DNA of 64,000 nt from Minisyncoccota bacterium (GTDB lineage Bacteria; Patescibacteriota; Minisyncoccia; Phycocordibacterales; UBA6065), in assembly GCA_035714745.1 (NCBI GenBank), contig DASTLR010000008.1, positions 7,394 to 71,393 of the forward strand. Reading direction: 5' to 3'. Positions 2 to 63,055 of this stretch are shown in pieces (the first letter of the stretch is position 1; each line of letters begins with the position of its first letter). Position numbers and translations under genes: made by a program. The notes under the pieces are model-generated. The model was not told where the DNA came from. It did no database searches and was given only the letters and a program-made list of their open reading frames with translations.

Positions 2-1099
2 TTGGCCCTCGACAGTTACACGGGAAACATCGTCGACCTCTTTGAGGGCCAGAAAGACCTGGGAAAGGGCATTATCCGCACGGTAGGCGACCCTCACGAG
101 AGGCTATCCGAGGACGCCCTGCGTATCATGCGAGCTATACGTATAGCCGCAGAATTAGGGTTTTCCATCGAAAAGAACACCCTGGAAGCCTTGAGAACGC
201 ATGCACCGCTCCTGGGCCATATCGCCAAAGAGCGCATCCGCGACGAATTCACACGGATCATCATGTCGGATACTCCAATGGATGCGTTGAAGATGGCTCG
301 AGACATTGGCATCCTACGGTTTATAGCCCCAGAATTGGAGGAGGGGGTGGGCATGAAACAGCCCCAGGCGCACGCATACGATGTCTGGGAACACCTCCTC
401 CGAACGATACAGCACGCCGCCGACAAGAAATATAGCCTGGAAATTAGGCTCGCGGCGCTCTTTCACGATATCGGCAAACCCAGGACGCGTCGGATTTCAC
501 ATGAAACAGGGCAATATACGTTCTACGGCCACGAGGTTGTCGGCGCCAATATGACGAGAAAAATCCTCAAGGACCTGCGTTTCACCAATAAGGTCATAGA
601 CGAGGTGGTGAAACTGGTCCGCTGGCACATGTTCTTCTCGGATACCGAGCAGATAACCCTGTCTGCCGTCAGGCGCATGGTCGCGAACGTGGGCAAGGAT
701 CGCATCTGGGACCTAATGAACGTGCGCATCTGCGACAGGATCGGTACCGGCCGCCCAAAGGAAAACCCATACCGCCTGCGCAAATACCGGGCGATGGTCG
801 AGGAAGCCCTGCGCGATCCGATCTCCGTCGGCATGCTCAAGATCGACGGCAAAAAGATCATGGAGACCGCCGGCCTGAAGCCTAGCGCAAAGATCGGCCT
901 GATATTGAATGCTCTGATGGAAGAAGTGCTCGAAGAGCCACGAAAGAACACGGAGGAACACTTGATACAGAGAACACGGGAACTGCAAGAACTTCCCGAA
1001 ACAGAGCTGAAAAAGCTGGCAGCCATAGGCAAGGAAAAGAAGATGAAGGCCGAGGAAGAGGAGATAGCCAGGATCAGAGGCAGGCACGGAGTAGAGTAA
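2..1099 (+). CDS. cca: CCA-adding tRNA nucleotidyltransferase, 5'-truncated at window start (polymerase head domain, HD motif FHDIGKP, Lys/Glu-rich tail)
   Basis: ORF translation reads GDPHERL...RIMRAIRIAAELGF followed by an HD domain HD..FHDIGK. The ORF is open to the window edge. Confidence 0.75.
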   Translation: MALDSYTGNIVDLFEGQKDLGKGIIRTVGDPHERLSEDALRIMRAIRIAAELGFSIEKNTLEALRTHAPLLGHIAKERIRDEFTRIIMSDTPMDALKMARDIGILRFIAPELEEGVGMKQPQAHAYDVWEHLLRTIQHAADKKYSLEIRLAALFHDIGKPRTRRISHETGQYTFYGHEVVGANMTRKILKDLRFTNKVIDEVVKLVRWHMFFSDTEQITLSAVRRMVANVGKDRIWDLMNVRICDRIGTGRPKENPYRLRKYRAMVEEALRDPISVGMLKIDGKKIMETAGLKPSAKIGLILNALMEEVLEEPRKNTEEHLIQRTRELQELPETELKKLAAIGKEKKMKAEEEEIARIRGRHGVE

Positions 1100-1548
1100 A
1101 ACGGCTCTACATAGCCGCTTTTTGCTACTTAGGCAGATACAAATAACCGCCTGCACGGAATCCGTACAAGCGGCTCCCAAAGGATCGCTTGATGAGTGTA
1201 GGGCGCTTAACCGCAAGGTTAGCGCGCATAAAATTGTATGATGTCGCCATTTGAACGGCTAACGTCACTGCACTCGTCTGAGAGATCTTTTGGATTGCTG
1301 GGGAGCGAATAAGTCGCGTCACCCGAGATAAGATCGCTGGGCTACGGGACGCCCAGCAAACTAGATTCTTTCGGAAGAATCCACTTTGCTGAGCAGCGCG
1401 CAGACCGATCGCGACCGAAACCAAAACCTTTACCGACCGAACATATTTGGAAGAGCTCGTCCTGGAGATATTCTAGCAGTCATAAAGGACATGTAAAGGA
1501 CAATAGTGTGGATAACTTGTCCCTTATAAAGGACATAAAAAGATGGCT

Positions 1549-2346
1549 CTACAGAGCGATGTCCAGCAATACCGGACAATGGTCCGAGCCCATCACTTCC
1601 GGCAAGATATCTGCCTTCGTTATTTTCTTCTCTAAAGATTTCGAGGTCAGGACGTAGTCGATCCTCCAGCCGACGTTCCTCGCCCGCGCGTTGGCGAAAT
1701 GAGACCACCAGGTGTAGAAGCCGTTGCCTGTGTGAGATATGCGGAAGGTATCGACGAAGCCGGCGTCGACGAATCTCTGGAAGCCCTCGCGCTCCTCGTC
1801 GGTAAAGCCCTTCAGCCCGACGTTCTCCTTTGGCCGGGCTAGGTCGTCCGAGGTATGCGCCACGTTCAGGTCGCCGCAAAAGATGACCGGCTTTTTCTTC
1901 TCCAATTCTTTGCAGTAGGCGAGAAAGGCCGGGTCCCAGTGCTTGTGGCGCAAGGGAATGCGGGTCAGGTCGTCCTTGGCGTTGGGGGTATAGACCGTGA
2001 CGACGTAGAAATCCTTGTATTCAGCCGCTATGACGCGGCCTTCAGTACGCGGATCCCCATATTCGTCAGCGATTAGGCCATATTTCTGGCAAATCTTGTC
2101 CGGAATGCCGTTCATGACGGCCATAGGCTTCTCTCTAGTGAATATGGCCGTGCCGGAATAGCCCTTCTTTTGGGCGGAGTTCCAGTATTCCTCGTAATCT
2201 GGCAAGTCGATCACAGCCTGGCCTTGCTCGGCCTTGGTCTCTTGGAGGCAGAGGATATCGGGACGATATTTCTCTATAAATGGCAAGAAAAGGCCCTTTT
2301 TATGGACAGCGCGGATGCCATTGACGTTCCAGGAGATGATCCTCAT
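1549..2346 (-). CDS. xth: Exodeoxyribonuclease III (ExoIII/APE1 family)
   Basis: MRIISWNVNGIRA...ILCLQETK...SDHCPV, the classic ExoIII signature. Start taken at the internal Met of the 275 aa ORF. Confidence 0.85.
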   Translation of the reverse strand: MRIISWNVNGIRAVHKKGLFLPFIEKYRPDILCLQETKAEQGQAVIDLPDYEEYWNSAQKKGYSGTAIFTREKPMAVMNGIPDKICQKYGLIADEYGDPRTEGRVIAAEYKDFYVVTVYTPNAKDDLTRIPLRHKHWDPAFLAYCKELEKKKPVIFCGDLNVAHTSDDLARPKENVGLKGFTDEEREGFQRFVDAGFVDTFRISHTGNGFYTWWSHFANARARNVGWRIDYVLTSKSLEKKITKADILPEVMGSDHCPVLLDIAL

Positions 2347-6826: not shown

Positions 6827-7816
6827 CTAGAAAGGATTCGTCGCCCCGCGGATCTCGAAGTGGACGTGCGGACCGGTAGACTTGCCGGTCGAGCCCAAGA
6901 GGCCGATGGTATCGCCCTGGCCGACAGCCTGGCCCTGGACGACGTCGACTCTGCTCATATGGCCATAGAGAGTCTGGGTGCCGTTCGGATGGGAGATGAC
7001 GACATATGAGCCGTAGCCTCCGTTATAGCCGCCGGAACGCGCCACGATGACGATGCCGCTCGCCGAGGCATGGATGGGCGTGCCTGTAGGCGCAGCCAGG
7101 TCGACGCCGTTATAGCCGTGAAGGCCCTGAGACTTCCTACCGCCATCGATAGGACGGATATAGTAATCCTTGTATACAGGACCGCCGGCGCCGCGCAGGG
7201 CCTCGGTAGGATTGGCGGCGGCCCCAGGGATGGAGGCGGGAGCGGGAGCAAGCTGGGCCTCGCCGTCAGGCACGATGATAGTCGAACCCACGGAAAGCAT
7301 CCCGTCCGCTGGCAGATCGTTATAGGCGATTATGTCATTCATGTCGGCCTTGTATTTCGTGGCTATCGAACGAACGGTGTCGCCTTTAGCGACCTTGTGG
7401 CTGACGCCGTTGATCGGCAGGATGACCAGCTCGTCTCCTTCGCGGATAGGGCCTTTGATATTGTTAGCCCAGATGATGGTATTAGCAGAGACGCCGTACA
7501 TCTTTGCGATCTGAGAAAGGGAATCGCCCTGGCGCACGACATACAGGCTGATCTGGGTCGATCGGCCTTCTTGGATATCTGCCTGGGTGCCGCTCGCGCC
7601 GCTCTCCTGGATCAGGGCCATACCGTTCAGCATGGCGATATCGCCCCCGCCGACGCCTGCCGTAGCGCTCGGGCCGACGTTCGCCTGGAGGACGCCGAGG
7701 ACTTCGGACGAGCGGGCGGCCACCTTTGCGTCAGCTTCTTTATTGCCGATAAGGTCAGAAATAAAAGAAAATACGCCCGCATAGGACGTACATGGCGCGA
7801 ATATGGTAAAAAGCAA
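6827..7816 (-). CDS. Peptidoglycan hydrolase with two LysM domains and an M23 metallopeptidase domain
   Basis: LysM repeats (YVVRQGDSLSQIAKMYGV and HKVAKGDTVRSIATKY) and the M23 motifs HxGVDLAA...GSTGKSTGPHVHFE. Confidence 0.8.
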   Translation of the reverse strand: MLFTIFAPCTSYAGVFSFISDLIGNKEADAKVAARSSEVLGVLQANVGPSATAGVGGGDIAMLNGMALIQESGASGTQADIQEGRSTQISLYVVRQGDSLSQIAKMYGVSANTIIWANNIKGPIREGDELVILPINGVSHKVAKGDTVRSIATKYKADMNDIIAYNDLPADGMLSVGSTIIVPDGEAQLAPAPASIPGAAANPTEALRGAGGPVYKDYYIRPIDGGRKSQGLHGYNGVDLAAPTGTPIHASASGIVIVARSGGYNGGYGSYVVISHPNGTQTLYGHMSRVDVVQGQAVGQGDTIGLLGSTGKSTGPHVHFEIRGATNPF

Positions 7817-8104
7817 AGAAAGCTTTACGCCGTAAAGCCCGATATTAAGCCATATATTTGACCGACGTGGAACAGACGTAGAAATAGTGCTGAAATTATC
7901 CGGGAATCGCGGGGTTTTCTGGCGATATGGCCTTGTTGAGCCATATTTTCAGGTAATCTGAGTTCGGTGTCCCTCCACTATACCTGCCCAGAGGGATACG
8001 TCAATCACATTTGTCCACCTGCTGTCCCCAGAGATATCTACAGCGTTGTATATGGCCTAACAAAGCCATATATTGGAAAATTTAGGCTATGATATAATCG
8101 ACTT

Positions 8105-10048
8105 GTGAACCACCTCGATAGCCTGAACGACCGACAGAGAGAAGCCGTGCTCAAGACCGAGGGTCCCGTGCTTATTCTGGCCGGCGCAGGGGCGGGCAAG
8201 ACCAAGACCATCACCCACCGTATCCTCCACCTCATAAAATCGGGGATAAAGCCCTCGAACATCCTGGCCATCACCTTTACCAATAAGGCTGCCAAAGAGA
8301 TGCGCGAGCGAGTCTTCGCCCTTATCAAGGGGGACAAGGAGTTGAACCTGCCCATATCCTTTGACGAAAGGCCGTTCGTCAGCACCTTCCACTCCCTGGG
8401 CGTCCACATCATCAAGGAGAACGCCCACCGCATAGGCCTGACCCGCCATTTCACCATTTTCGACCGTAGCGACTCGCGGCGGGCGATAAAAGAGGCCGTC
8501 ATGGAGCTCGGCCTCGACCCAAAGCAATACGACCCCAGCGTCATCCTCTCCGTCATCTCGCGGGAGAAGGGAAACGGCATCGGCTTGGACCGTTTTCAGG
8601 ACAGCGTCGGGAACGACTATATGAGAGAGGTCGTCTGGAAGGTCTGGCAGAAGTATGAGGCAGCGCTTCGCAGGGAGAAAGCCCTGGATTTCGACGACCT
8701 CCTTCTGCGCTCGGCCGAGATGCTCGAGAAGCATGCCGAAGTGCGAACTCATTACGAAAAAGCATGGAAGTACGTTCATATCGACGAGTATCAGGACACG
8801 AATAAGGTCCAGTACAAGATCGCCCGGCTCATCAGCGGCGAGACGAAGAACATCTGCGTGGTCGGCGACGTCGACCAGAACATCTACAGCTGGCGAGGCG
8901 CCGATATCAAGAACATCCTGAACTTCGAGCGCGACTATCCGGGAGCGGCCATGGTCACGCTCGAGGAGAACTACCGCTCGACCCAGACCATCCTGGAGGT
9001 GGCGAACCACATCATCCAGAAGAACAAGAACCGCTTCGAGAAGAATCTCTACACCAGGCGCGGGGAAGGAGACAAGATCCTCGTCTATAACGCCTTTGAC
9101 GAGAACGACGAGGCGCGCTTCGTGGCTGAAAAAGCGGCGGCCCTGATCGAGGGCGGCACCGATCCTCGCGAGATCGCCGTCCTTTACCGCGCCAACTTCC
9201 AGTCGCGCGCCTTGGAAGAGGCCATGATCGCCCGTGAAGTCCCATACCAAGTCCTGGGCGTGAAGTTCTTCGAGCGCAAAGAGGTGCGCGACGCGCTCTC
9301 ATACATCCGCGCCGCCCTGAACCGCGACTCGCTCTCGGACCTGCAGCGCGTCATAAACGTGCCCGCGCGCGGCATCGGCAAGGTGACGATAGCAAAGATC
9401 TTCTCGGGCATGATCGACAGCCTCTCGAACGCCCACGCCGAGAAGTGGAAGAATTTCAATCTGATACTCGACGACATCGCCGCCGCGGCCGGACGGGAGA
9501 AGCCGTCCGACCTGATCAAATTCGTCCTCAGGCGAACGGGTCTCGAGGACATGCTCAAGGCCGGCACCGACGAGGACCTGGAGCGCCTGGAGAACGTCCG
9601 CGAGCTGGCGACCCTGGCGACGAAATACGACTTCATGATGCCAGGGGAGGGGGTGTCAAAGCTCCTGGAGGACGCCGCCCTGGCCACCGATCAGGACGAG
9701 ATGGAGGAAGACAAGCCCGCAGCCAGGATGATGACGGTCCATGCCTCGAAAGGCCTGGAATTCGAGCACGTCTTCATCACCGGCCTCGAGCAGGACCTCT
9801 TCCCGCACCGCGGCATGGAGTCGTCGAAGCGCGAGAAGCGCGACGAGGAAGAGGAGCGCCGCCTCTACTACGTGGCTCTCACGCGAGCTAAAAAGAGGCT
9901 GTACCTGAGCCATGCCTCGATGAGGACTATCTTTGGCTCGCGCCAGGTGACCGTGCCGTCAGAGTTCGTCTTCGACATCCCGGAAAAATACCTAGAGACC
10001 GAGGAGCGGGCCCGCATCGGCGGGAAAGTGATATATTTCGACATATGA
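8105..10048 (+). CDS. pcrA: UvrD/PcrA-family ATP-dependent DNA helicase
   Basis: LNDRQREAV...AGAGAGKT, helicase motifs I-VI, the VHASKGLEFEHVF box and the C-terminal YVALTRAK motif. GTG start. Confidence 0.9.
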   Translation: MNHLDSLNDRQREAVLKTEGPVLILAGAGAGKTKTITHRILHLIKSGIKPSNILAITFTNKAAKEMRERVFALIKGDKELNLPISFDERPFVSTFHSLGVHIIKENAHRIGLTRHFTIFDRSDSRRAIKEAVMELGLDPKQYDPSVILSVISREKGNGIGLDRFQDSVGNDYMREVVWKVWQKYEAALRREKALDFDDLLLRSAEMLEKHAEVRTHYEKAWKYVHIDEYQDTNKVQYKIARLISGETKNICVVGDVDQNIYSWRGADIKNILNFERDYPGAAMVTLEENYRSTQTILEVANHIIQKNKNRFEKNLYTRRGEGDKILVYNAFDENDEARFVAEKAAALIEGGTDPREIAVLYRANFQSRALEEAMIAREVPYQVLGVKFFERKEVRDALSYIRAALNRDSLSDLQRVINVPARGIGKVTIAKIFSGMIDSLSNAHAEKWKNFNLILDDIAAAAGREKPSDLIKFVLRRTGLEDMLKAGTDEDLERLENVRELATLATKYDFMMPGEGVSKLLEDAALATDQDEMEEDKPAARMMTVHASKGLEFEHVFITGLEQDLFPHRGMESSKREKRDEEEERRLYYVALTRAKKRLYLSHASMRTIFGSRQVTVPSEFVFDIPEKYLETEERARIGGKVIYFDI

Positions 10049-23761: not shown

Positions 23762-24505
23762 CTATTTCGCCGCCTTCTCTCGGGCGATCTGCCTCCTGAT
23801 ATAGAGCTCCTGGCCGATCATAAAGAGGTTGCTGGTGATCCAGTAGATCGCCAGGGCGCCGGCGACGTTCCACGAGATGAAGAATATCATCACCGGAAAG
23901 ACGTATTTCATCTGGGCCTGCATGTTGCGCGCCAGGTCCTCGTGAAGCTTGGCTCCCGCCGCCGGCCGAGCCGCGGCTTTTGGGACGGAGATCGAGATCT
24001 GCAAGTACTGCGAGAGCGCGGCGAGCGCGGCCAAAAAGACGCTTTTCTGGGTCACGTCGATGAGGTCGAGGAAATGCGTGCCGATAGCAGGCGGGATGGA
24101 TACCCAGCTATAGAGGAGCTCGGTATGAACGGTCGAGAAACCGGTCGTATAAAAGATCCTATAGAGGGCGATGATGATCGGCAGCTGGATGAAGAGCAAG
24201 AGGATGCTGGAGAAGGGATTTATCTTCTTTTCCTTGTACAATGCCATGGTCTGTATCGCCTGGGCCTGCTTGTCGTCCTTGTATTTCTCCTTTATGGCGG
24301 CGAGCTCGGGCTCGACGGTCTTCATGACGACCTGCGTGCGAGCGGCTTTCTTCGAGATAGGGAAGAGCACCAGCCGAACGATGATGGTAAAGAGGATGAC
24401 GACCATGCCCGCGTCGATCCATGGAGCGAATCGAGCCGAGTTCATCAGGATGACCAGGCCGTTATAGAGGGGGTTATAGACGACCGTCGTATAGAGATAA
24501 TGCAT
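23762..24505 (-). CDS. yidC: Membrane protein insertase YidC (short, Gram-positive type)
   Basis: The YidC/Oxa1 core helices and the conserved rpmH-rnpA-yidC synteny. Confidence 0.85.
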   Translation of the reverse strand: MHYLYTTVVYNPLYNGLVILMNSARFAPWIDAGMVVILFTIIVRLVLFPISKKAARTQVVMKTVEPELAAIKEKYKDDKQAQAIQTMALYKEKKINPFSSILLLFIQLPIIIALYRIFYTTGFSTVHTELLYSWVSIPPAIGTHFLDLIDVTQKSVFLAALAALSQYLQISISVPKAAARPAAGAKLHEDLARNMQAQMKYVFPVMIFFISWNVAGALAIYWITSNLFMIGQELYIRRQIAREKAAK

Positions 24506-24526
24506 ATTGATGAGTATAGACGCTGA

Positions 24527-24847
24527 TTATAGCACCCGAGAGAGCAGGGAGTGGACCTCGGCGGAGAGCCGCTCAGCGGGCGCCGTCAGAGCCTCCTTCT
24601 TCGGCATGAACATCACGAACGCCGGCTCTGCCGAGCGCAGGCGCTCCATGTCGAGCACGCCGTAGACGCGGCGGCGGGCGCGGTTGCGCTCGACGGCGGT
24701 CTTGAAGACCTTCTTTGACGCAGAAACGGCGAACTTGAGCCGTTTCGCGGGAATATAGCGCAAAGAAACAAGCGTCCCAAAGACGCTTTTTCCTTGCGCG
24801 AGGCATTCGATCTCACCAGACGCGAGTCGATCGCCCTTCTTGAGCAT
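24527..24847 (-). CDS. rnpA: Ribonuclease P protein component
   Basis: Basic 106 aa protein (RNRARRRVYG) in the canonical position between rpmH and yidC. Confidence 0.85.
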   Translation of the reverse strand: MLKKGDRLASGEIECLAQGKSVFGTLVSLRYIPAKRLKFAVSASKKVFKTAVERNRARRRVYGVLDMERLRSAEPAFVMFMPKKEALTAPAERLSAEVHSLLSRVL

Positions 24848-24984
24848 TAGACGTTCACTATCCTGGCTCGGCCTTTGTGTCGCCTGCGAGCCATGACCTT
24901 CTTTCCGGTCGGAGTGCTCTTGCGAGCGAGGAATCCGTGAGCGCGGGCTCGCTTTCGGTTACGGGTTTTGTATACGATCGCCAT
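24847..24984 (-). CDS. rpmH: 50S ribosomal protein L34
   Basis: My hand translation of the minus strand gives MAIVYKTRNRKRARAHGFLARKSTPTGKKVMARRRHKGRARIVNV. It is absent from the ORF track because it is shorter than 60 aa. Its stop overlaps the rnpA start (TAATG). Confidence 0.85.
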   Translation of the reverse strand: MAIVYKTRNRKRARAHGFLARKSTPTGKKVMARRRHKGRARIVNV

Positions 24985-25094
24985 AAAAATCTTGTTAACA
25001 GCTTGTGAACATATTATTAACATATTTACTTCGCATTCACAAGTACTAAAATTCCTTAAAGCGACTATACTTAATCCACTTCATCCGAGAGATC

Positions 25095-26438
25095 ATGGAT
25101 ACTAAAAAACTTTGGGAGAACGTGTCGGGCGCCATCGAGCTCCAGGTGTCGAAAGCGACCTTTAATACCTGGTTCCGCGACACCCACATCCACAAGATCG
25201 ACGAAGGGGTAGTGTACGTGGCGGTCCCTAATCCCTTTGTAAAGGACTGGCTCTCTGAGAAGCTCCACAAGGTCATCCTGAAATACCTCCGAGACTTCGG
25301 CAGCGACGTCAGGTCCATAGAATACGTCATCTCCAAGACTCCCGAGCGAAAAGAGCCCGTAGAAGACGCCTCGAGGCCTTCGCCGGTCTTCGAGTTGCCT
25401 CTCCAGGAGCACTATATAAACAAAGAGGATAACCTCAATCCTAAATATACGTTCGATTCATTCGTGGTCGGGCCCTTTAACGAGCTTGCCCATGCAGCCG
25501 CACAGGCGGTCCTCAAGAGCCCCGGAGTGGCCTATAACCCTCTTTTCATCTATGGCGATACCGGGCGAGGCAAGACGCACATCATGCAGGCAGTCGGGAA
25601 CGCTATAAAAGCCAACTATCCCGATAAAAAGGTCTTCTACGTCACCTCCGAGCGCTTCGCGGTCGACTACATGAACTCGCTCCAGCTGGGAACCGCAAAT
25701 AAATTCAAAGAACGCTATAGGAAATACGATGTCCTTATCATGGACGACGTACAGTTCTTCGCCAGCAAGGAAAAGATCCAAGAGGAGTTCTTCCACCTTT
25801 TCAATACCCTCAAAGAGAACAACAAACAGCTGATCTGCTCGTCCGATCGCCATCCGAACAACATCCCTGAGCTCGAAGACCGCATAAAATCGCGCTTTAA
25901 TGCCGGCATGATCGTCGACGTGGCCGCCCCGGACCTGGAATCCAGGCTCTCCATCCTGAAGGCGAAGCTATCGAAGCAGGGCATCAGCCTGCCGGCAGAG
26001 CTCATCGAATATATAGCCACCACTATAGAAGGTAACGTCCGCGAGCTTGAAGGAGTCATCAACTCGATCGCCATGCAGACCCAGCTAAAGGGCAGGGAGC
26101 TGAATATCATCGAGATCAAGGGCATCCTCAAGAACAATGCGAAACCAAAGAAATCCGTCTCGGTAAAAGATGTGGTGAAGGTCGTGACCGACTTCTATAA
26201 CATCGAGGAGAACAACATTTACGAAAAGACCCGTAAAAAGGAGGTGGTCAAACCGCGCCAGGTCATCATGTACCTCTTGCGAGAGGACTTGAATATCTCG
26301 TACCCCTCCATCGGCGAGAAATTAGGAGGCCGCGACCATACCACCGTCATCCATTCGTGCGAAAAGATAAAGGAAGACATAAAATCCAACCAAACGCTGG
26401 TGCAGGAGCTGAATCATATACGATCGCTTATCCTCTAG
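25095..26438 (+). CDS. dnaA: Chromosomal replication initiator DnaA
   Basis: The DnaA N-terminus, an AAA+ domain (GDTGRGKTH), a sensor box and a C-terminal DnaA-box-binding domain. Confidence 0.95.
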
Positions 26439-26721
26439 GGCGCGGCATGCGTTGGGGAAAAAGCTGTGGAGAAGCGGGAAAGAGCGCGGGGATAACCTTG
26501 AAAATCGAAAGAGGGAAATGGGGACAAAAAAAGGATAACTTCCCGGAAAACGACGAAACAAAATTAGTTGTTCGAACGTAGTGGGGGATATCCACCGATG
26601 GGCCCGGAGCTATTTTTTAAAGGACCCTTTGCCAGAGCGCTGTAAAAAGTTATTCACATATCAACACCGGTAATAGTAATAGTAGTTTTCTTTTAAGAAT
26701 ATTAAGAGATATAGTAGGGAC
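26439..26721. promoter_or_regulatory. Candidate oriC: DnaA-box cluster plus an AT-rich unwinding element in the dnaA-dnaN spacer
   Basis: DnaA-box-like 9-mers GGGATAACC, AGGATAACT, ATATCCACC and TTATTCACA (consensus TTATCCACA). The 45-nt AT-rich tract taatagtaatagtagttttcttttaagaatattaag lies just before dnaN. Confidence 0.55.
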
Positions 26722-27822
26722 ATGAAAATCGAATGCATCAAAGACAAGCTGATCGACGGAATCTCCAAAGCTGATCGACTGACCGGCAAGAACCTCTCAT
26801 TGCCTATCCTGGCGTGCATCTATCTCAAGGCCGTAAAGAATACCTTGGTCATCCGCGCAACCAACCTGGATTGCGGCATAGAGGTCAGGATCCCCGCTAA
26901 AGTCGAAGCCGAGGGCGAGGTAGCCCTCCAGGGAGCGGTTCTAAACTCCCTTTTGGCCGGACTGCCTCGCGAAAAGAATATCGTTTTGCAGTCGAAAGAC
27001 GGAAATCTCCTGGTATCGACTTCGGCGAATACGACCCTTATAAAGACGTTCTCTCCGGACGAATTCCCTACGATCCCAAAGCTTGATACCCAGCGCACCA
27101 TCGAGATGAGCCCTAAAGTCCTCGTAAAAGGCTTTAAATCGGTCGTATACAGCGCTTCTCAATCGACGGTGAAGCCTGAGCTGTCGAGCGTCTACGTCTA
27201 CAAGGACGGGGCGGACCTGGTCTTCGTCTCGACCGATTCGTTCCGCCTGGCCGAAAAGAGGATAAAAGTGAAGGAGGATATGGATTTTCCTTCAGTCATC
27301 ATTCCTGGCAAGAATGTGAACGACATAATCAGGACCCTGGAGAGCTCTACCGAAGACGTCAGAGTGCTCTTTGATAAGAACCAGATCGCTTTCGAGGGCA
27401 AGGACGTCTACCTGATGTCCCGCGTCATCGACGCGACGTTCCCGGATTACAAGCAGATCATCCCAAAGGTTTTTGTCACCGAGGTAGTGGTCCTCAAGCA
27501 GGACTTCGTGGATTCGCTCAAGACCTCGCACGTGTTCTCGGATAAATTCAATCAGGTCAACGTGAAGGCCCTGCCTTCCAAGAAGTCGTTCATCATCTCG
27601 ACCAAGAACAGCGATATCGGGGAATATACGAATACCATCGATTCCAGTGTCACCGGGCAGGATGTCGAGATCAATTTCAACCATAAGTATCTTTCGGATT
27701 GCTTCCAGTCTATCGACGCCGATAGCCTCTCTATCTCGATCAGCGGCGCCAACAAGCCATTGGTCATGAGGGGGGTTTCCGACAAGTCCTTCACCTATCT
27801 GGTGATGCCTATGAATAGGTAA
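26722..27822 (+). CDS. dnaN: DNA polymerase III beta sliding clamp
   Basis: 366 aa with the three-domain beta-clamp pattern, downstream of dnaA. Confidence 0.9.
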   Translation: MKIECIKDKLIDGISKADRLTGKNLSLPILACIYLKAVKNTLVIRATNLDCGIEVRIPAKVEAEGEVALQGAVLNSLLAGLPREKNIVLQSKDGNLLVSTSANTTLIKTFSPDEFPTIPKLDTQRTIEMSPKVLVKGFKSVVYSASQSTVKPELSSVYVYKDGADLVFVSTDSFRLAEKRIKVKEDMDFPSVIIPGKNVNDIIRTLESSTEDVRVLFDKNQIAFEGKDVYLMSRVIDATFPDYKQIIPKVFVTEVVVLKQDFVDSLKTSHVFSDKFNQVNVKALPSKKSFIISTKNSDIGEYTNTIDSSVTGQDVEINFNHKYLSDCFQSIDADSLSISISGANKPLVMRGVSDKSFTYLVMPMNR

Positions 27823-42243: not shown

Positions 42244-42316
42244 CCGCCCATAGCTCAGTCGGTAGAGCAGCTCCCTTTTAAGGAGAGGGTCCCAGGTTCG
42301 ATTCCTGGTGGGCGGA
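42244..42316 (+). tRNA. tRNA-Lys (anticodon UUU)
   Basis: Cloverleaf folded by hand: acceptor CCGCCCA/TGGGCGG, D arm GCTC-AGTCGGTA-GAGC, anticodon loop CUUUUAA, T loop TTCGATT. No encoded CCA. Confidence 0.8.
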
Positions 42317-42329
42317 CTAAGTGTTCCCT

Positions 42330-53824: not shown

Positions 53825-53897
53825 TGGTGCCTATAGTTTAGTGGTAAAACTCCGGATTGTGGTCCCGGCATTGTGGGTTCGATTCCCACTAGGCACC
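53825..53897 (+). tRNA. tRNA-His (anticodon GUG) with a G(-1) extra base; boundary of the AT-rich island
   Basis: G-1 plus acceptor GTGCCTA/TAGGCAC, anticodon loop UUGUGGU, T loop TTCGATT and discriminator C. Confidence 0.75.
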
Positions 53898-55490
53898 CCT
53901 TAAGTCTGTTATTCCGATAGTCTCTCGGAAAGCAGGACTCTTTTCTGCAAAAGCCTTTTCCATTGGGAAAGGTTTTTGCTTGTTATTGAGGCAAAGCGTA
54001 CCAGTGGCAATCAACGCCTCCATAATTGGGCTAGGGACAGCTTTAGCGATCTTGCGGTCAGATACCTCAAATCTCTCCCAAAATATGCTCAAGTACGTCC
54101 TTTTAAGCTCTGGAGAAGCCTGTTGGTAAGCCTCGCCTAGGTTTCGAGCAAGAAGTATTACCTTCTGAATTACATCAACTTTGATGTTCTTATTGGCATC
54201 GAGCTTGGCGAGTTCGCTTCCACAAGAAACTATTATCTCCCTTTGTCTTTCTTTGATTCGAGTGAAGTCGTTATCATCAAGTACGCCAGAGATAAGCTTT
54301 TCCTCAGCGAGCTGGAGTTTTGATTCGGCGGCAGACTTAGTCGCCAGAATCTTTCGCTTCTCACGTTCCGTATCCTGCTTTTTCAGTGAATAGATGAACT
54401 TGACCCTCTCAAGCAGACGCTCAATGAACTTCTCAGAGAACTGAATTCCTCGAAAGTGTTCGACTACCTGATCTTCGAGGTCTTTTACGTTAACTCCTCG
54501 ATCGTTATCTGGAATAACGAATGGTTTCTGTTTATTCGTTGCATAAGGACGATAGTAGCTTTTATCCTTTTTCTTCTCATGGTTCTCGCCTATGAATCTC
54601 AAACCGCTTATAGCTGAGAACACATAGCCACGAAGAAGGAAATCATATTTTCGCCTCCGGCAGACACCATGACCATTATTCAATCGAACTTGTCGGCATC
54701 TTTCAAAGACTTCCTGAGATGTGAGAGGCGTGTGTTTACCCATTTTTCTCATTTCACCCCAGACCATTTCTCCATGGTAAAAAGGGTTTGCAATAATCTT
54801 AAACATATTCGCCAGACCGAGCTTTCCTCCCGTGTGTGATGTAAGTCCTTTCTTGAAAATCCATTCTCGCAATTCGAGCATTGGATGGTTACCCGTAGCG
54901 TACTTTCGGAAAAGTTCTGTAACAACCGGACCTTTTATTGGATCAACGACGATAATGCGTTTATCGGGATTATTTTCTTCGCCGACATTGAGATAACCAA
55001 GCGTAGCTCGCGTAGGCCACCAGCCGTCATTAAACCGCTGTTGCATGCTCTTCTTGGTCTTACGAGACGTTATCTGTGATTGAAGCTGATTAACGCCTGC
55101 AATGATCGTATCCATGAAGTTTCCCTCTGGAGTATCTTCAATTCCTGGCTGGGAGATAGAAACGAGCGTCGCAGAGTATTTCTTCAGAAGTGCCTTTATG
55201 GTGGTGTGATCGTTCACGTTGCGGGCAAGCCTGTCGGTATCGAGTACGAAGACCGCCCTGATATCTTTCTCTTGCACACGAACGAGCATATCCTGAAGAG
55301 CGGGACGATTCATTGTTGTAGCTGACTTACCAGCATCTACGAAGACCCCATTGTCCGTCAGTTCGTATTTACCGCTTTCTGTAATTGTTTTCTTACAGAG
55401 ATCCTCCTGTGTAGCAAGCGAATAACGCCCGCCCTTTGCCTGCTCCTCTGTGGAGACACGGCAATATATAACTGCTTTATCTTTGGTCAT
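53889..55490 (-). CDS. Large serine recombinase (resolvase/invertase N-terminal domain, recombinase domain and zinc ribbon)
   Basis: AVIYCRVSTEEQ with the catalytic Ser, resolvase domain motifs and a long C-terminal recombinase region. Its 3' end overlaps the tRNA-His 3' end by about 9 nt. Confidence 0.85.
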   Translation of the reverse strand: MTKDKAVIYCRVSTEEQAKGGRYSLATQEDLCKKTITESGKYELTDNGVFVDAGKSATTMNRPALQDMLVRVQEKDIRAVFVLDTDRLARNVNDHTTIKALLKKYSATLVSISQPGIEDTPEGNFMDTIIAGVNQLQSQITSRKTKKSMQQRFNDGWWPTRATLGYLNVGEENNPDKRIIVVDPIKGPVVTELFRKYATGNHPMLELREWIFKKGLTSHTGGKLGLANMFKIIANPFYHGEMVWGEMRKMGKHTPLTSQEVFERCRQVRLNNGHGVCRRRKYDFLLRGYVFSAISGLRFIGENHEKKKDKSYYRPYATNKQKPFVIPDNDRGVNVKDLEDQVVEHFRGIQFSEKFIERLLERVKFIYSLKKQDTEREKRKILATKSAAESKLQLAEEKLISGVLDDNDFTRIKERQREIIVSCGSELAKLDANKNIKVDVIQKVILLARNLGEAYQQASPELKRTYLSIFWERFEVSDRKIAKAVPSPIMEALIATGTLCLNNKQKPFPMEKAFAEKSPAFRETIGITDLRGA

Positions 55491-55987
55491 TGTTTATAGA
55501 TGAACTCCATTGGGACGAATCCCTTCCGTGAAGTGAATTGCCCGTCGAGTATTCTGATCTCTCGTACTCCCAATGAAGAATTGCTAAGTACCAACACTTT
55601 CGTTCCCGCCTTAACAAAATAGGCTTCATTGTTGCCGATAAGCTCGATCAGTCCATCTGAATCGTTAGCGATTGCAGACTTTGAGTATTTATCAAATGCT
55701 TCCTTGGTTGAAGGAACCATGACTTCGTCTTTTCCTTCGATTCTGAGATAACCCTCTTCACCCACGCTTACTCGAGTAGAAGTTTGAGGAGTGGAGGTTA
55801 CTGCACGCTCACTTACATTGTTAGATGCCTTAGCGAGAGATATGGTTATAAATAAAAAGAAGATCAGTGCGACGACAGCAAGAGGATGCCTACGTGCCCA
55901 TGATCTTAAATCTGCCTTACAATTCGGACATCGTTTCGCTTTCTTAGGGATATCCGTCTGACACTCCTTACATTTTTTTGTTTCCAC
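55487..55987 (-). CDS. Hypothetical zinc-ribbon membrane protein, translationally coupled to the recombinase
   Basis: N-terminal CKECQ..CPNC zinc ribbon, a TM helix and an extracytoplasmic domain. The stop overlaps the recombinase start (ATGA). Confidence 0.4.
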   Translation of the reverse strand: METKKCKECQTDIPKKAKRCPNCKADLRSWARRHPLAVVALIFFLFITISLAKASNNVSERAVTSTPQTSTRVSVGEEGYLRIEGKDEVMVPSTKEAFDKYSKSAIANDSDGLIELIGNNEAYFVKAGTKVLVLSNSSLGVREIRILDGQFTSRKGFVPMEFIYKQ

Positions 55988-56256
55988 GTGATTAGAAATA
56001 AACGATTAATCCCGTGGAAAGCTCCCACACAAAAAACCTGCCACAGGTAGGAACCGAAGTCCCTCGTGAAGGTTTCCCCGCACGGCCAGTTAGACAACCC
56101 TATGACAGGCTCTTTATGTCTAACTGGACTTATAGCCATGCTCTGGAGAAAACTCCAGAGGTTAGGCTCATGAACGCTATTTAGTTGTAAGGTAATTATG
56201 CTCTTTTTCATCCTTTTTGCCAAAATGACTTTGAAACGCTGACGCCTATACGTTTT

Positions 56257-56472
56257 TTAGTTGTCGGCTATAGGCGGTTTAGTCGCTTCTGACTGAGAGT
56301 CGCCAGTTTCCTTTTTGACGTTATCCACCAAGACCGCCCGTCTTTCTCTCATGTATCTCTCAAAAATGCTGTAAACCAGTTGATTAATGGACACCTTTTC
56401 ACAAAGAGCATCAATTTTGAGAAATGAATGCTGTTCGCGGGTAACTTTTATGTGTTTGGTGAACTTGAACAT
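56257..56472 (-). CDS. Hypothetical small protein (71 aa)
   Basis: ORF in the island followed by a hairpin. No motif recognised. Confidence 0.3.
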   Translation of the reverse strand: MFKFTKHIKVTREQHSFLKIDALCEKVSINQLVYSIFERYMRERRAVLVDNVKKETGDSQSEATKPPIADN

Positions 56473-56842
56473 GTAATTAAGTTGTTAACGCTATAGGGTA
56501 GGCGGAGCCCATATCCCTCGTCGGTAAATAATTGAAAGGTGTTACTCAGATTTCTCTCTGCACCTTTTGTAGAAAGACTTAAAGTGAATGGCGGTCTTCA
56601 CCCGAAGCTTCTCGGTTTCCCCGATGGCTTTCTTTAACGCCACACCTTCTACTTCATTCATGTGGCGGGAATCGCGAACCCTATAGGTATAGGCATCGCC
56701 CTGTATCGCGGCACTTTTTTAACGACGCACACCGCTCTACCCCTCACGTCGGAACTGAAAAGAGCCCTAATTTAGAAGGGCAGACCAGTACCCCCTAAAT
56801 CAGGGCTCGTTTCAGAGCTTAATTACTGGTCTGTCCCAAATA

Positions 56843-56981
56843 TTACTTATTGCCTTTCAATTCAGCCTCAATGAGCTCGATTGCCTCCTGGAGAAGAAGA
56901 TCAGCAACTCGGCGAGCCAAAGTAACCTCTGGGTCTTTTACCCAAGTAGGCTCTTCTATTCGCTTATCCTGCTTCTTTGCC
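56843..56981 (-). CDS. Hypothetical small protein (46 aa) followed by a strong hairpin terminator
   Basis: My hand translation gives MAKKQDKRIEEPTWVKDPEVTLARRVADLLLQEAIELIEAELKGNK. It is followed by nested inverted repeats at 56761-56837. Below the ORF-track size cutoff. Confidence 0.3.
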
Positions 56982-57059
56982 ATAATTTATTATTTGCAGG
57001 GCGATTATAAAAAAGCAGAGCAAGTTCATTGCTCCGCTTAAAGGGGGTGGTTAAGAGGG

Positions 57060-57752
57060 TTATAGTTTTCTACTCTTTATTTTGGCCATTATTTTTCTTG
57101 CCTGCGAGAGAGACACTCTCAAATGTCCGGCCATTTTTTCATCACCGCAATCAGGATTTGCCTTCAAAAACTCCTTGGCTTCCCATTCGAGGTTTTTTGT
57201 TTTTTCTTCTTTCGGTTTAACTTTTTTTGAGAGTGGATGCTTCGATGAAATTGAGTTCTTAAGACTCCTGTCGATTTCTGACCAATTGTCCTCAATGTAT
57301 TTAATGAGCTCAGGTTTGCTAGCCCCAGGTTCGACGTAGATTTCTGCGTAAGCGAAATTCTCGATGTCATCACCAGCATTTTTTATTTTATGAGAAACTC
57401 CCAAGGATGTATTCGAAATCCCTCCGAACAGGGTTTTTTCTACTATTGCCGCTACGACCAAGCCGTTATCAAAATTAAATTTTTTTGATACCGAATCATA
57501 CAACTCTGATTGTGCTTCCAGGAAAATCCTCTGAGTTTCTGGTTGGCGTATGGTATGACCTGCCAGTTTCATACCTCGCGTCAGTTTTATTTGTTCGATG
57601 TCGGAGAGCCATTTCCGAAACTCTTGAACAGTTTTAACCTCGTTTCTAAAAGGCAAAAAAGCTACCTTAAGTGCGTCTATGTCCTCATCCAGGTCGATTT
57701 TGAGCATCAATTTATCTACCCACTCTTCTAGTCTGTTGGCTGGTCTCTCCAT
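57060..57752 (-). CDS. Hypothetical protein with a possible C-terminal helix-turn-helix
   Basis: 230 aa. The C-terminal segment EKMAGHLRVSLSQARKIMAKIK resembles an HTH. Confidence 0.4.
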   Translation of the reverse strand: MERPANRLEEWVDKLMLKIDLDEDIDALKVAFLPFRNEVKTVQEFRKWLSDIEQIKLTRGMKLAGHTIRQPETQRIFLEAQSELYDSVSKKFNFDNGLVVAAIVEKTLFGGISNTSLGVSHKIKNAGDDIENFAYAEIYVEPGASKPELIKYIEDNWSEIDRSLKNSISSKHPLSKKVKPKEEKTKNLEWEAKEFLKANPDCGDEKMAGHLRVSLSQARKIMAKIKSRKL

Positions 57753-57805
57753 AGCTTAATCTTATGTCATTTTGGACGTGCATAAAATGACAAAAGGAAT
57801 AGTAT

Positions 57806-58942
57806 GTGGGTATGCCAGATATTCCCAAACAGTATTTTCTATACTATTTCCCTTACCTCACAATGAGAGATGTCGAGGAGATAGATTTTGGATTTATCAA
57901 GATTTGGAACTTTGATAAGAAGAAGGATGCTTATATCTCTGACCCTGCTCTTAAGGCAAAAATTACACAGATTCTTGCTAACTACCAATCCCAGTTTTAT
58001 CCAGTTAGAGGTATTGGAATAGCTTCTATTGGTACTAATGATTTTAGGAAATTTACACCTGAAGAGGCGGCGGATCTTCATACTGCAAAATACATTCTTT
58101 TCATTTCCGCTCTTGCATATAACAACCTCCATACTGCAAATGTAAATATCGGACACGCTATGTTTAGTTCGGAAAATTTCGAGAGCATGATATTTAGCAT
58201 GGTCTTAGACAGTGAGTACATGTCTGAACCTGGAGGATTCGTCATAAATATGCTTCATGGAGGTATTGAGATAAGTAAGAATCTCCAAAAGACACCCTCT
58301 TACATATTAAATCCGTCTCGCCTGAATTTAGATGTGGATTTGTTTAATACACTCATCAAACTAAGGAAGCGTAGGCCAAAATTCTTTAAAAGATTAATAT
58401 CGGCAATCGAAGTTTTCTATGAAAGCTATTACAATTCGCCTCAAGTCAGTGAAAAGGCACGTATCTTGCTCCTTACAAGTGCTTTTGAGATGCTTTTACA
58501 GTCTGAACCTGGGGCAGGCAGAGAAAAGACAAAAAACTTTATCGCTTTGCATGCTAACGTTCCCGAAGATCGAAAATATTCTTATTACTCCGAGAGAAGA
58601 GGTGGTGTAGTCAGGGAGAGCGGAACCCGAAAGGAAATATGGGCTGATAGGTTTTTTAGTCTTCGAAATCATATTGCTCACGGAGATATCGTTCCTAAGA
58701 CAGAATTTCTTTATAAGTCACAAAGGCACTTCGATATTGCCCCGCTATTCTTTGTCTTTACTCTTAAAAAGAAAATAGACCTGTATTTAAGGAGAGATAT
58801 CTTTGGTGACGAAATTGAGTGGAAGAAGTGGACAGATGAAAATACAATCCCTATTACGGAGTATGAGGGGTTTGCGTACAATGCAACTAAAGGGAAATTG
58901 AGAAAACTTTTTAATAAACTAAGAAAGAGGAAACGCCCATGA
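57806..58942 (+). CDS. HEPN-motif protein (Rx4H), putative abortive-infection or RNase-type defence protein
   Basis: LRNHIAHGD contains the R-x4-H HEPN catalytic motif in the C-terminal third. 378 aa with a basic tail. Confidence 0.45.
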   Translation: MGMPDIPKQYFLYYFPYLTMRDVEEIDFGFIKIWNFDKKKDAYISDPALKAKITQILANYQSQFYPVRGIGIASIGTNDFRKFTPEEAADLHTAKYILFISALAYNNLHTANVNIGHAMFSSENFESMIFSMVLDSEYMSEPGGFVINMLHGGIEISKNLQKTPSYILNPSRLNLDVDLFNTLIKLRKRRPKFFKRLISAIEVFYESYYNSPQVSEKARILLLTSAFEMLLQSEPGAGREKTKNFIALHANVPEDRKYSYYSERRGGVVRESGTRKEIWADRFFSLRNHIAHGDIVPKTEFLYKSQRHFDIAPLFFVFTLKKKIDLYLRRDIFGDEIEWKKWTDENTIPITEYEGFAYNATKGKLRKLFNKLRKRKRP

Positions 58943-59658
58943 AAAACCTACCCAAAGTAAAAAACAATTCCCAGACCGATCCCTTGGAGTCGGTTGAGTT
59001 ATCTGGAAAGCAAATAAAAGATGTCATTGAGTCCTCCGGAGTAAATCTAGTCGCCAGTTTTATTCCTGGACTTGGCAAGTTTCTTGAATGTATAGACTAT
59101 GCAAACCAAAAAATAAGAGAAGAGAAACTGAATAATGTATTAAAGATTTTCATATCTCATTTCGATTCATTGGATGAGGCTCTCGCTCAAATTAAGAAAC
59201 TCGTCAGCAATCGATCTGGAATTATTTTGTTTCAAAAAATAATACAGATCGTAGACAACGGGTCTTCTGATGATGAATGGTTAAACATACTAGCAAACAT
59301 ACTGAAAAACATAGCGGAGGAAGATATTACTAAACACTTTGATGAAAGGAGTTATTTTCTCGCACAAATTGATCGCCTAACACCACAGGCCTTGATTATT
59401 ATTAGTAAATACGACCTCTGGATGCAGGCTCATATCCAAGATACAACCACTACTAGCGGACAAACAGCCTCTGGTAATTGGAGTGAGCAAGTTACTGGTT
59501 TTCTCAAAACAAAAATTGGAATTTCTGATGGTCAGACTGGAGCTAGGATCAATCATTCCTTCCGTGAACTGGAATCGGCGGGGATGATTAAATTGGAAGG
59601 ACACCAAATCAGGCTCACCCCTGTTGGTAACGAGATTCGCCGAATGATGAAAAAATAA
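58939..59658 (+). CDS. Hypothetical protein, overlapping partner of the HEPN gene
   Basis: The start overlaps the HEPN gene stop (ATGA). No motif recognised. Confidence 0.4.
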   Translation: MKNLPKVKNNSQTDPLESVELSGKQIKDVIESSGVNLVASFIPGLGKFLECIDYANQKIREEKLNNVLKIFISHFDSLDEALAQIKKLVSNRSGIILFQKIIQIVDNGSSDDEWLNILANILKNIAEEDITKHFDERSYFLAQIDRLTPQALIIISKYDLWMQAHIQDTTTTSGQTASGNWSEQVTGFLKTKIGISDGQTGARINHSFRELESAGMIKLEGHQIRLTPVGNEIRRMMKK

Positions 59659-59663
59659 ATTCA

Positions 59664-60437
59664 ATGAAAGAAGGAACTTGTAAATTATGTCTGGAATACA
59701 AAAAGTTATGCAAAGAATCTCATATAATTCCGAAGTCTTTATATAGACTTCTAGCTGGAGAAAATAATCAACTGATATATATCAACGAGGAGAAATCGAA
59801 ACCTAAATACAATAGCGAATACGAAGGCGGTATTTTGTGTGAGAATTGCGATAACAAAGTGATTGGGTTACTTGATGACTATGCGGCAAAATTCATCTAC
59901 GGCGAGTTTCCAAATAAAGGGACTTCGGGGACGGAATGGATAGAAGGGCGTGAGACTGTAATTCGAGAAAACGATCCGAGTTACGATTATTCGCGTTTTA
60001 AACTATTTCTGCTTTCTGTTTTATGGAGAGCTAGTATCTCTTCGAGACCTTTCTTTCAAAAACTGAAGCTTCCTTCCGCCATAGAAGAAGATTTGAGGCA
60101 AAGAATCCTTACGGGTAGCCCAGGACAACCAGACGAATATCCATGTTTCATACACTTGCCCCCATTAATCACTCAACCGGACGGAAGGCGTGGTTTTGAG
60201 ACGTTCTACATGCAAACTATGTCTCCAATTTATATGGATAGGGGTGAGCTGAAAATGTGTGAGTTCATCATTCAAGGTATGCACTATTACTTCATAATTG
60301 CTCGTCCTGCGAACATGAATGTTCTTCCTTCGGTTGATACAAACAGACTAACCATGGCTTTTAGTAAGCCTGAGGAACATACCCAAATTATTCAAACCAT
60401 ACTCGATTTTATGAAGGGGCATCCTAAACGGAAATGA
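59664..60437 (+). CDS. HNH-like nuclease domain protein (CxxC..ESHIIP..CxxC N-terminus)
   Basis: GTCKLCLEYKKLCKESHIIPKS ... CENCDNK resembles an HNH zinc-finger nuclease core. Confidence 0.4.
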   Translation: MKEGTCKLCLEYKKLCKESHIIPKSLYRLLAGENNQLIYINEEKSKPKYNSEYEGGILCENCDNKVIGLLDDYAAKFIYGEFPNKGTSGTEWIEGRETVIRENDPSYDYSRFKLFLLSVLWRASISSRPFFQKLKLPSAIEEDLRQRILTGSPGQPDEYPCFIHLPPLITQPDGRRGFETFYMQTMSPIYMDRGELKMCEFIIQGMHYYFIIARPANMNVLPSVDTNRLTMAFSKPEEHTQIIQTILDFMKGHPKRK

Positions 60438-60487
60438 AACTAATGCACATTTGTTGACTATACCCCTAGGGGGTATATACTTTCGAC

Positions 60488-60757
60488 ATGACAAAAAATC
60501 CATCGAAAACAAAATTATCTCGTCGTCTCAAAATCGTTGAGGGTCAAATCAGAGGCCTTCAAGAGATGATCGAAAAGGACGCGTATTGTATAGACGTCAT
60601 CACCCAAACCTCGGCCGTGAAGCAAGCTCTCTCGGGTATTGAGGACGCTCTTATGGAACATCACCTCTCTACCTGTGCTGTAGATCAGATGCAGGGCGGC
60701 AAGTCTGAGAAAACTAAGCAAGAAATCCTTAAGGTCTATAGGCTTAAGCGAAAATAA
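60488..60757 (+). CDS. csoR: CsoR/RcnR-family metal-sensing transcriptional repressor
   Basis: RLKIVEGQIRGLQEMIEKDAYCIDVITQ...H...C, the CsoR Cys-His-Cys signature. Lies directly upstream of copA. Confidence 0.8.
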   Translation: MTKNPSKTKLSRRLKIVEGQIRGLQEMIEKDAYCIDVITQTSAVKQALSGIEDALMEHHLSTCAVDQMQGGKSEKTKQEILKVYRLKRK

Positions 60758-60760
60758 TCT

Positions 60761-63052: not shown

Positions 63053-63055
63053 TCA

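Follow-up and report, generated by a model that had tools for sequence, protein, structure and literature searches.

A putative operator-type palindrome conserved upstream of an M23/LysM peptidase gene in Candidatus Paceibacterota, possibly doubling as a leader hairpin

The CIRCE/HrcA operator (TTAGCACTC-N9-GAGTGCTAA) of heat-shock operons is a phylum-wide inverted repeat with invariant arms and a spacer of fixed length, located between the promoter and the start codon. The palindrome described here (henceforth the dyad) has the same properties and the same location, and because of this location each of the two would be a DNA operator and a hairpin of the leader RNA at once. The two elements differ in sequence, in the length of the arms (9 bp in CIRCE, 5-7 bp in the dyad), in that of the spacer (9 nt as against 4-6 nt), and in their targets, which are groES/dnaK for CIRCE and a cell-wall peptidase gene for the dyad. 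The regulator of CIRCE is HrcA, whereas none was found for the dyad. In the repressor loops of lac (O1/O3), gal (OE/OI) and deo, a main site near or downstream of the start is paired with an auxiliary site some 90-130 bp away, and the dyad spacings of 114, 124, 125 and 135 bp are likewise near integral helical turns. Unlike the loops of lac, gal and deo, a loop at the dyad is suggested by spacing in only four to five lineages, most lineages having one site. CIRCE/HrcA and the classical two-operator loops appear to be the nearest functional analogues of the dyad. LexA boxes are palindromic as well, and one copy of the dyad is found near a UvrD-family helicase gene; yet the dyad is unrelated in sequence to the LexA box classes compared, and it tracks the peptidase gene. 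At the level of translation, the AUU start of infC in E. coli is a parallel, in that a conserved non-canonical start (AUU or AUA in the case of the M23 gene) implies limited or regulated initiation, but the gene families differ and the start of the M23 gene is deduced from reading-frame conservation alone. A 2017 study (PMC5737381) described candidate leader motifs that precede M23 and lysM genes. Like the dyad, they are found 5' of genes for M23 or LysM peptidases, but they are multi-helix folds, whereas the dyad is a single short hairpin with invariant arms, and the motif models gave no match here.

Gene regulation is hardly charted in the CPR/Patescibacteria, which are uncultured and have tiny genomes with few recognisable regulators. 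The locus that we analyzed is a concrete and testable control region kept across the group. It entails a sigma70-type promoter with a DnaA box, the dyad, and a hydrolase gene with an apparent AUU start, set in a genome whose mRNAs appear to be mostly leaderless. The dyad could serve as bait for its regulator, which, if found, would reveal how these episymbionts keep a potentially lethal cell-wall enzyme in check. The tempting reading of the dyad as an SOS operator of a repair helicase is corrected by the analysis, as the element is reassigned both in gene and in pathway. We regard it as an operator-type element that possibly doubles as a leader hairpin.

The stretch of DNA under analysis (the window) comprises 64,000 nucleotides. 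An M23/LysM peptidase gene (6827-7885, minus strand) encodes an N-terminal signal/TM segment, two LysM domains and a Peptidase_M23 domain (PF01551, 2.8e-30; PF01476, 5.7e-22), and it is divergent from a gene for a pcrA/uvrD-type helicase (8105-10048, plus strand, GTG start). The region between the two genes holds copy 1 of the dyad at 7925-7946 (forward-strand sequence ATATGGCCTTGTTGAGCCATAT; minus-strand, M23-sense sequence ATATGGCTCAACAAGGCCATAT; core at 7943-7928; 32.5 bits with the covariance model) and copy 2 at 8050-8071 (ATATGGCCTAACAAAGCCATAT), 125 bp apart from start to start. The preliminary description of this DNA had reported two near-identical dyads with these coordinates and this distance, and both are exactly there. 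It had also placed a third half-site near 7843. We located a partial third copy at 7843-7858 (minus strand; M23 sense AATATATGGCTTAATA), with GCCATAT at 7849-7855 within TTAAGCCATATA (7845-7856). Each half-site of the dyad has the form (AT)ATGGCT (half-site sequence AGCCATAT). The partial third copy overlaps the N-terminal codons N-I-W-L of the M23 gene and is kept in four relatives (L002, L081, L082 and L084). A search for ATATGGC-N8-GCCATAT with up to two mismatches returned two sites in the 64 kb, both of them the dyads, where 0.11 were expected; at least two such sites were also seen in 2 of 100 shuffles of the window. The two copies align better when inverted (19/22) than when direct (17/22), because their 8-bp centre is asymmetric and is reversed between them, reading TTGTT in one and AACAA in the other.

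The strongest argument against chance is the comparative recurrence of the element upstream of the M23 gene. Related loci (L001-L138) were collected by a pcrA-based search (80 loci, about 0.5 Mb) and by an M23-based search (75 loci). Some 35 related genomes and metagenome contigs, of 33-56% GC, contain the core (A)TGGCTC-N4-GAGCCA(T), 16-18 bp in length, and across these loci it is always upstream of an M23/LysM peptidase gene. With the relaxed core TGGCY-N6-RGCCA, the pcrA-based set gave seven CPR loci and no other match; in each of them the core precedes pcrA by 119-226 bp. All seven share the gene order comM, M23/LysM (on the opposite strand) and pcrA; the GC content of the 21 CPR pcrA loci to which they belong spans 29-55%. 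The metagenome scan with the M23 protein placed the core upstream of M23 in about 25 of the 75 loci. In L125/L127, L131 and L133 the core is beside M23 with no pcrA in the 3 kb upstream, and no core was found upstream of pcrA in L003, L004, L009, L010 and L014-L017, where M23 is not adjacent. By this distribution, the dyad belongs to the M23/LysM gene and not to pcrA or to DNA repair. The proposal that the paired palindromes are operators ahead of pcrA is not supported: a copy proximal to pcrA is confined to the clade of the window, and the element tracks M23 phylum-wide. Absence of the motif upstream of orthologous pcrA genes had been named in advance as counting against that proposal, and the motif is present there solely where M23 is the neighbor. 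We consider the dyad to be regulatory in all likelihood.

The pattern of conservation within the element is distinctive. In the M23-sense set, the N6 spacing gave 38 unique matches, whereas each of the other spacings between 2 and 12 stayed at a background of 5-12. All 25 aligned leader copies agree in the GGC/GCC arm pairs, and TGGCT/AGCCA hardly varies, while the 4-6 nt centre is free (AACA, AATA, TATA, CGTA, TGTA, TACA, AGTA and others). The asymmetric centre is inverted in place in L007 and L101, with the site kept. Copy 1 is the copy conserved across the phylum, and most lineages have it as their single copy; copy 2 of the window is confined to its clade. Second copies are present in L002 (125 bp away), L086 (124 bp), L084 (114 bp) and, in degenerate form, L081/L082 (about 135 bp). 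Together with the window, the distances between the two copies of 114, 124, 125, 125 and about 135 bp amount to 10.96, 11.92, 12.02, 12.02 and 12.98 turns of 10.4 bp, a helical phasing drawn from four to five lineages. In the window and in L081, the partial third copy is separated from copy 1 by 91-92 bp and is out of helical phase, which counts against the argument from phasing. A different arrangement is seen in L111, L113, L116 and L123, in which the dyad and GCCRTAT half-sites are all upstream of the promoter of the M23 gene. L113 and L116/L123 share the layout of half-site, 46 bp, dyad, 64 bp and half-site (110 bp overall), although their spacers, judged by eye and not by formal alignment, appear to be unrelated.

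The promoter that faces the M23 gene, P1, is of the sigma70 type (7977-8004, minus strand), with TTGACG (8004-7999) separated by 16 nt from TATAGT (7982-7977). In 23 related loci it agrees with the consensus at 9 or more of 12 positions, and in 21 of these the -10 box is followed by the start of the dyad at a distance of 28-40 nt. In the window the core of copy 1 begins 33 nt past the -10 box, and the centre of copy 2 is located some 90 bp upstream of the P1 start site. A DnaA-box-like sequence (8012-8020; M23 sense GGTGGACAA, a 7/9 match) is 7 nt upstream of the -35 box. Among the relatives, a DnaA box with at least 8/9 match to TTATCCACA is found upstream of P1 in 11 of 25 loci, compared to 1.2% of background segments, and the distance between this box (TGTGGATAA / TTATCCACA) and the -35 box tends to be 5 or 17 nt. 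This enrichment and placement suggest control of the peptidase promoter by DnaA. Downstream of the dyad, a conserved CAGAAA box (7916-7921, minus strand), 6-8 nt past the core, possibly serves as the -35 box of a second promoter or belongs to the leader. A TAATTT box of the TAnnnT type (7893-7898, minus strand) lies 7 nt before the start codon; its geometry is that seen at the leaderless genes of the window, and it may be a promoter. Such a second promoter, P2 (CAGAAA, 15-17 nt, TAnnnT, 6-7 nt, AUU), is possible, its enrichment being modest. Against P2, the M23 mRNA is likely leadered, because orthologues carry long structured leaders.

The M23 gene very probably starts at AUU (7885-7883, minus strand) and not at the TTG at 7816. 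The motif RGGCTT-AT(T/A) places an ATT or ATA in frame with the M23 open reading frame in at least 23 distinct loci, often just 2-10 codons past an in-frame stop, and in 18 loci there is no ATG, GTG or TTG before the signal/TM segment. In the window, 39 nt separate the end of the 22-bp copy 1 from this start (42 nt from the core). The base ahead of TGGCT is A, G or T and never C, and for this reason the arm reads NTG GCT. A small gene that starts in the hairpin was considered and rejected: the upstream frame ranges from 2 to at least 50 codons (39 in the window) and its product is not conserved (MA*, MAQ*, MAQQSH...).

Other features of the leader were also recorded. A GACACCGAA-like conserved sequence just past the P1 -10 box (7955-7972 of the window, minus strand) is shared by the window, L002, L081, L083, L085 and L086. 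Four other relatives have a different conserved leader of about 210 nt, which extends from P1 to the AUA start of M23 (L124:2745-2985, L126:840-1085, L115:2725-2965 and L012:2590-2840, minus strand). It displays several compensatory base pairs and has no Rfam match, and it is a candidate for a new cis-regulatory RNA. Further leader types occur in L100/L110/L112 and in L111/L113. A scan of the window against Rfam 15, with 7650-8200 searched at E values up to 10 and the M23 and lysM motifs and ydaO included, gave no match at the locus, and no Rfam 15 family reached its gathering score in 38 related loci.

We put an even chance on the dyads being operators of a putative dimeric DNA-binding protein of Ca. 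Paceibacterota that controls the M23/LysM gene. This reading is favored because the arms are invariant, the centre is free at a fixed length, copies and half-sites are found outside the predicted transcripts, and the spacings are kept. Conserved half-sites about a spacer of fixed length and free sequence, association with a promoter, and conserved spacing of multiple sites are what an operator is expected to display, and all of these were found. The earlier assignment of the dyads to a divergent control region under repressor-type control agrees with their conservation, and control by a protein is still the best reading. We infer binding, repression and loop formation as follows. A dimeric protein on copy 1, at about +30 from the P1 start, would prevent or impede transcription of M23. 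In the clade of the window the same protein would also occupy copy 2, on the other side of P1. The two copies, 125 bp or about 12 helical turns apart, could then be brought together, with P1 and the DnaA box inside the resulting loop. Counted from the start of pcrA, copy 2 reaches from about -55 to -34 and adjoins the -35 region of the pcrA promoter; by touching this side of the promoter, the protein might co-regulate pcrA in this clade. The pcrA promoter is of the extended -10 type, hence it may not need the region of copy 2. Searches with Pfam returned no DNA-binding domain among the window ORFs near the locus, with small ORFs taken to E values up to 1, and thereby no regulator gene. Other observations also run against the operator. 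One-sided changes in the core pairs keep G-U in the M23-sense RNA, which a symmetric DNA site does not predict, and other lineages put a structured RNA leader in the same place. Because of the latter, control of M23 at the level of RNA is likely to exist.

The alternative that survives best is that copy 1 acts as a hairpin in the leader of the P1-driven M23 transcript, where it would tune a gene with a weak AUU start by protein binding, stability, processing or attenuation, the extra DNA copies being local duplicates with no role or a separate one. We hold this to be possible but on balance doubtful. Within the predicted leader the position of the hairpin does not change: it lies about +30 from P1 and 39-46 nt ahead of AUU. 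Over the five core pairs and the first flanking pair (25 copies, M23 sense), one-sided changes gave nine G-U and no A-C; over all ten pairs the bias toward G-U is weaker, 15 vs 10, with 211 vs 206 paired cells. Pair 1/16 runs through U-A, U-G (L084 and L005) and C-G (L113), and the outer pairs covary weakly, with a score that was reached in 2 of 500 shuffles; the three G-C pairs of the stem never vary across the 25 copies. The hairpin folds at -9.4 kcal/mol (z = -3.1), while the whole leader of the window folds no better than its shuffles (z = -0.8). A U-rich 3' flank is present in L101, L102, L135 and L089. The orthologues in L124, L126, L115 and L012, with their different structured leader and its compensatory pairs, and the candidate motifs known upstream of M23 and LysM genes in other phyla (PMC5737381) also speak for the RNA. 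In contrast, the sequence of the stem is invariant and the loop is free, if fixed in length, which is the reverse of the usual protein-bound RNA hairpins. RNAalifold on 21 leaders predicted no structure besides the hairpin. Copy 2, for which no promoter is evident, the arrays of L111/L113/L116 and the lone half-sites upstream of P1 would be unable to fold in the transcript. Read in the M23 sense, the flipped copy of L101 contains two C-A mismatches. The two copies fold with similar energies on either strand (-9.4 to -11.7 kcal/mol), and the copy of the window has no U-tract. An intrinsic terminator or attenuator was rejected separately, as copy 1 of the window is followed by AUAUCGCC with no U-tract, and a U-tract is found in few relatives only.

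The operator and the RNA evidence would be reconciled by a two-level element like CIRCE. As in CIRCE, the copy 1 hairpin within the P1 transcript could add an effect at the level of RNA to that of the operator. In its broadest form, the proposal is that a new regulator, found in Paceibacterota alone, has the dyad as its operator, that the dyad acts as DNA site and as leader hairpin, and that with the DnaA box of P1 and the AUU start it forms a phylum-wide module that ties expression of a septal or lytic hydrolase to the replication status, with PcrA covered as well in the clade of the window. We consider this extended form rather improbable.

Some features are reminiscent of repetitive DNA. 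Copies within one genome share their centre: AACAA in the window, CAATA in L002, ACACAG in L084 and AACAAA in L086. The same holds for two weak family members elsewhere in the window, both with CTACA. The first is a hairpin at 1100-1117 (CGGCTCTACATAGCCG, then CTTTTT; 24.3 bits, E 5e-5) right past the cca stop, and the second, at 1544-1559 (TGGCTCTACAGAGCGA; 19.1 bits, E 0.005), overlaps the xth stop. Exact repeats of 14 nt (L097:814-831) and 11 nt (L081:5220-5237) of the local dyad centre and 3' arm are found 1.7-2.3 kb away from the dyad, the former inside pcrA, where it codes for V-A-L-Q-S-D. Both are too long for chance. The shared centres, the distant partial copies and the cca/xth members suggest local duplication or gene conversion of the palindrome. 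One could propose accordingly that the hairpins are structural or repetitive palindromes of the REP or terminator type, which spread and homogenise locally with no dedicated regulator, and the A-tract and T-tract flanks in L086, L101 and L116, the related hairpins at the 3' ends of cca and xth, the shared centres and the distant partial copies in L097 and L081 would all fit. We find this unlikely. Unlike REP families, the dyad has held its place beside one gene family over deep divergence; there are just two strong and two weak copies in 64 kb; no gene of the RAYT type (REP-associated transposase) was found in the window; and the arms are under selection while the flanks have diverged.

Very little weight is given to the possibility that the inverted copies are crossover sites for a site-specific recombinase, which would invert the 103-bp P1 segment and make the promoter phase-variable. 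The 7-bp arms around an asymmetric 8-bp centre do resemble miniature lox or dif sites, inverted copies flank P1 in the window, L002 and L084, and the centres match within each genome. However, P1 faces M23 in every sequence seen, the copies in L086 are direct, most lineages have a single copy, and the sole recombinase of the window is an integrase-type large serine recombinase beside tRNA-His, 46 kb away.

The least credible reading, that of LexA-like (SOS) operators which repress pcrA and other repair genes, draws on the adjacency of copy 2 to the pcrA promoter and on uvrD/pcrA and LysM-bearing division inhibitors such as YneA and ChiZ being SOS genes in some phyla, but the motif follows M23 and not pcrA, ruvA, ruvB, ruvC and polA (the repair genes of the window, which does not include lexA and recA) have no copy upstream, xth has just one weak family member, at its stop codon, and the dyad resembles no class of LexA box known to us (e.g. 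CTGT-N8-ACAG, GAAC-N4-GTTC). LexA-like control with repair genes had been suggested earlier and is not upheld by the upstream regions of ruvA, ruvB, ruvC and polA; the accompanying remark that the motif is not a canonical SOS box is sound, as the core TGGCTC-N4-GAGCCA fits none of the box classes compared. A sigma-54 promoter (TGGCAC-N5-TTGC) was also rejected by eye: the GC of the -12 element would be shifted by one position, and the site is a palindrome.

The promoter of pcrA has an extended -10 box (8090-8098, plus strand; TGATATAAT), in which TATAAT (8093-8098) is preceded by TG. A TATAAT close to the GTG and downstream of copy 2 had been noted before; we find copy 2 to end 21 nt upstream of it, and six nucleotides to separate it from the start codon. 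The nearest relatives of the PcrA protein are in Candidatus Paceibacterota and other CPR (81% identity in L002; 48-60% in L001 and L003-L021), which places the window in a Paceibacterota genome. Nearly every pcrA orthologue of this phylum has a TGnTAnnnT box 5-9 nt (mostly 6-7 nt) ahead of its start codon. TAnnnT stands at -12 or -13 relative to the start codon in about a dozen genes of the window, among which SD sequences are nearly absent. The kept position of the box across orthologues and window genes lends support to the suggestion that the pcrA transcript is leaderless, which is very probably the case. By the same sequence features, the leaderless start is the norm of this genome and no peculiarity of pcrA, and translation is predicted to be predominantly leaderless.

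The region of the weak hairpins deserves mention on its own. A perfect DnaA box (1507-1515) is found 28 nt from the xth-side hairpin, next to a strong minus-strand promoter (1497-1470) with TTTACA (1497-1492), 16 nt and TGcTAGAAT (1478-1470). The order of hairpin, DnaA box and minus-strand promoter is the same as that of copy 2, the DnaA box and P1, and copy 2 is as far from P1 as the similar xth-side hairpin is from its promoter. An open frame of 345 nt lies between the two weak hairpins (window 1095-1565); it has no Pfam or Rfam match and could be either a small basic protein or a non-coding RNA.

The window holds the replication origin region, since yidC, rnpA, dnaA and dnaN (23762-27822) are at the minimum of the cumulative GC skew, in an AT-richer stretch. 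It also has ruvA, ruvB, ruvC, polA, xth, a PBP1 gene, a type-IV-secretion-like cluster and a low-GC island. ARAGORN called a tRNA-Stop with anticodon TTA at 42244-42317 (plus strand), the loop of which, CUUUUAA, fits tRNA-Lys(UUU) in the usual register. TAA is used as the stop codon in 9 of the 28 annotated genes of the window, and this tRNA is probably not a suppressor. The low-GC island (53827-64000; 38-48% GC, compared to about 58% elsewhere) begins at tRNA-His, carries the gene for the large serine recombinase (53889-55490, minus strand) as well as a LOOT RNA (56049-56168, 84 bits), and probably represents an integrated mobile element.
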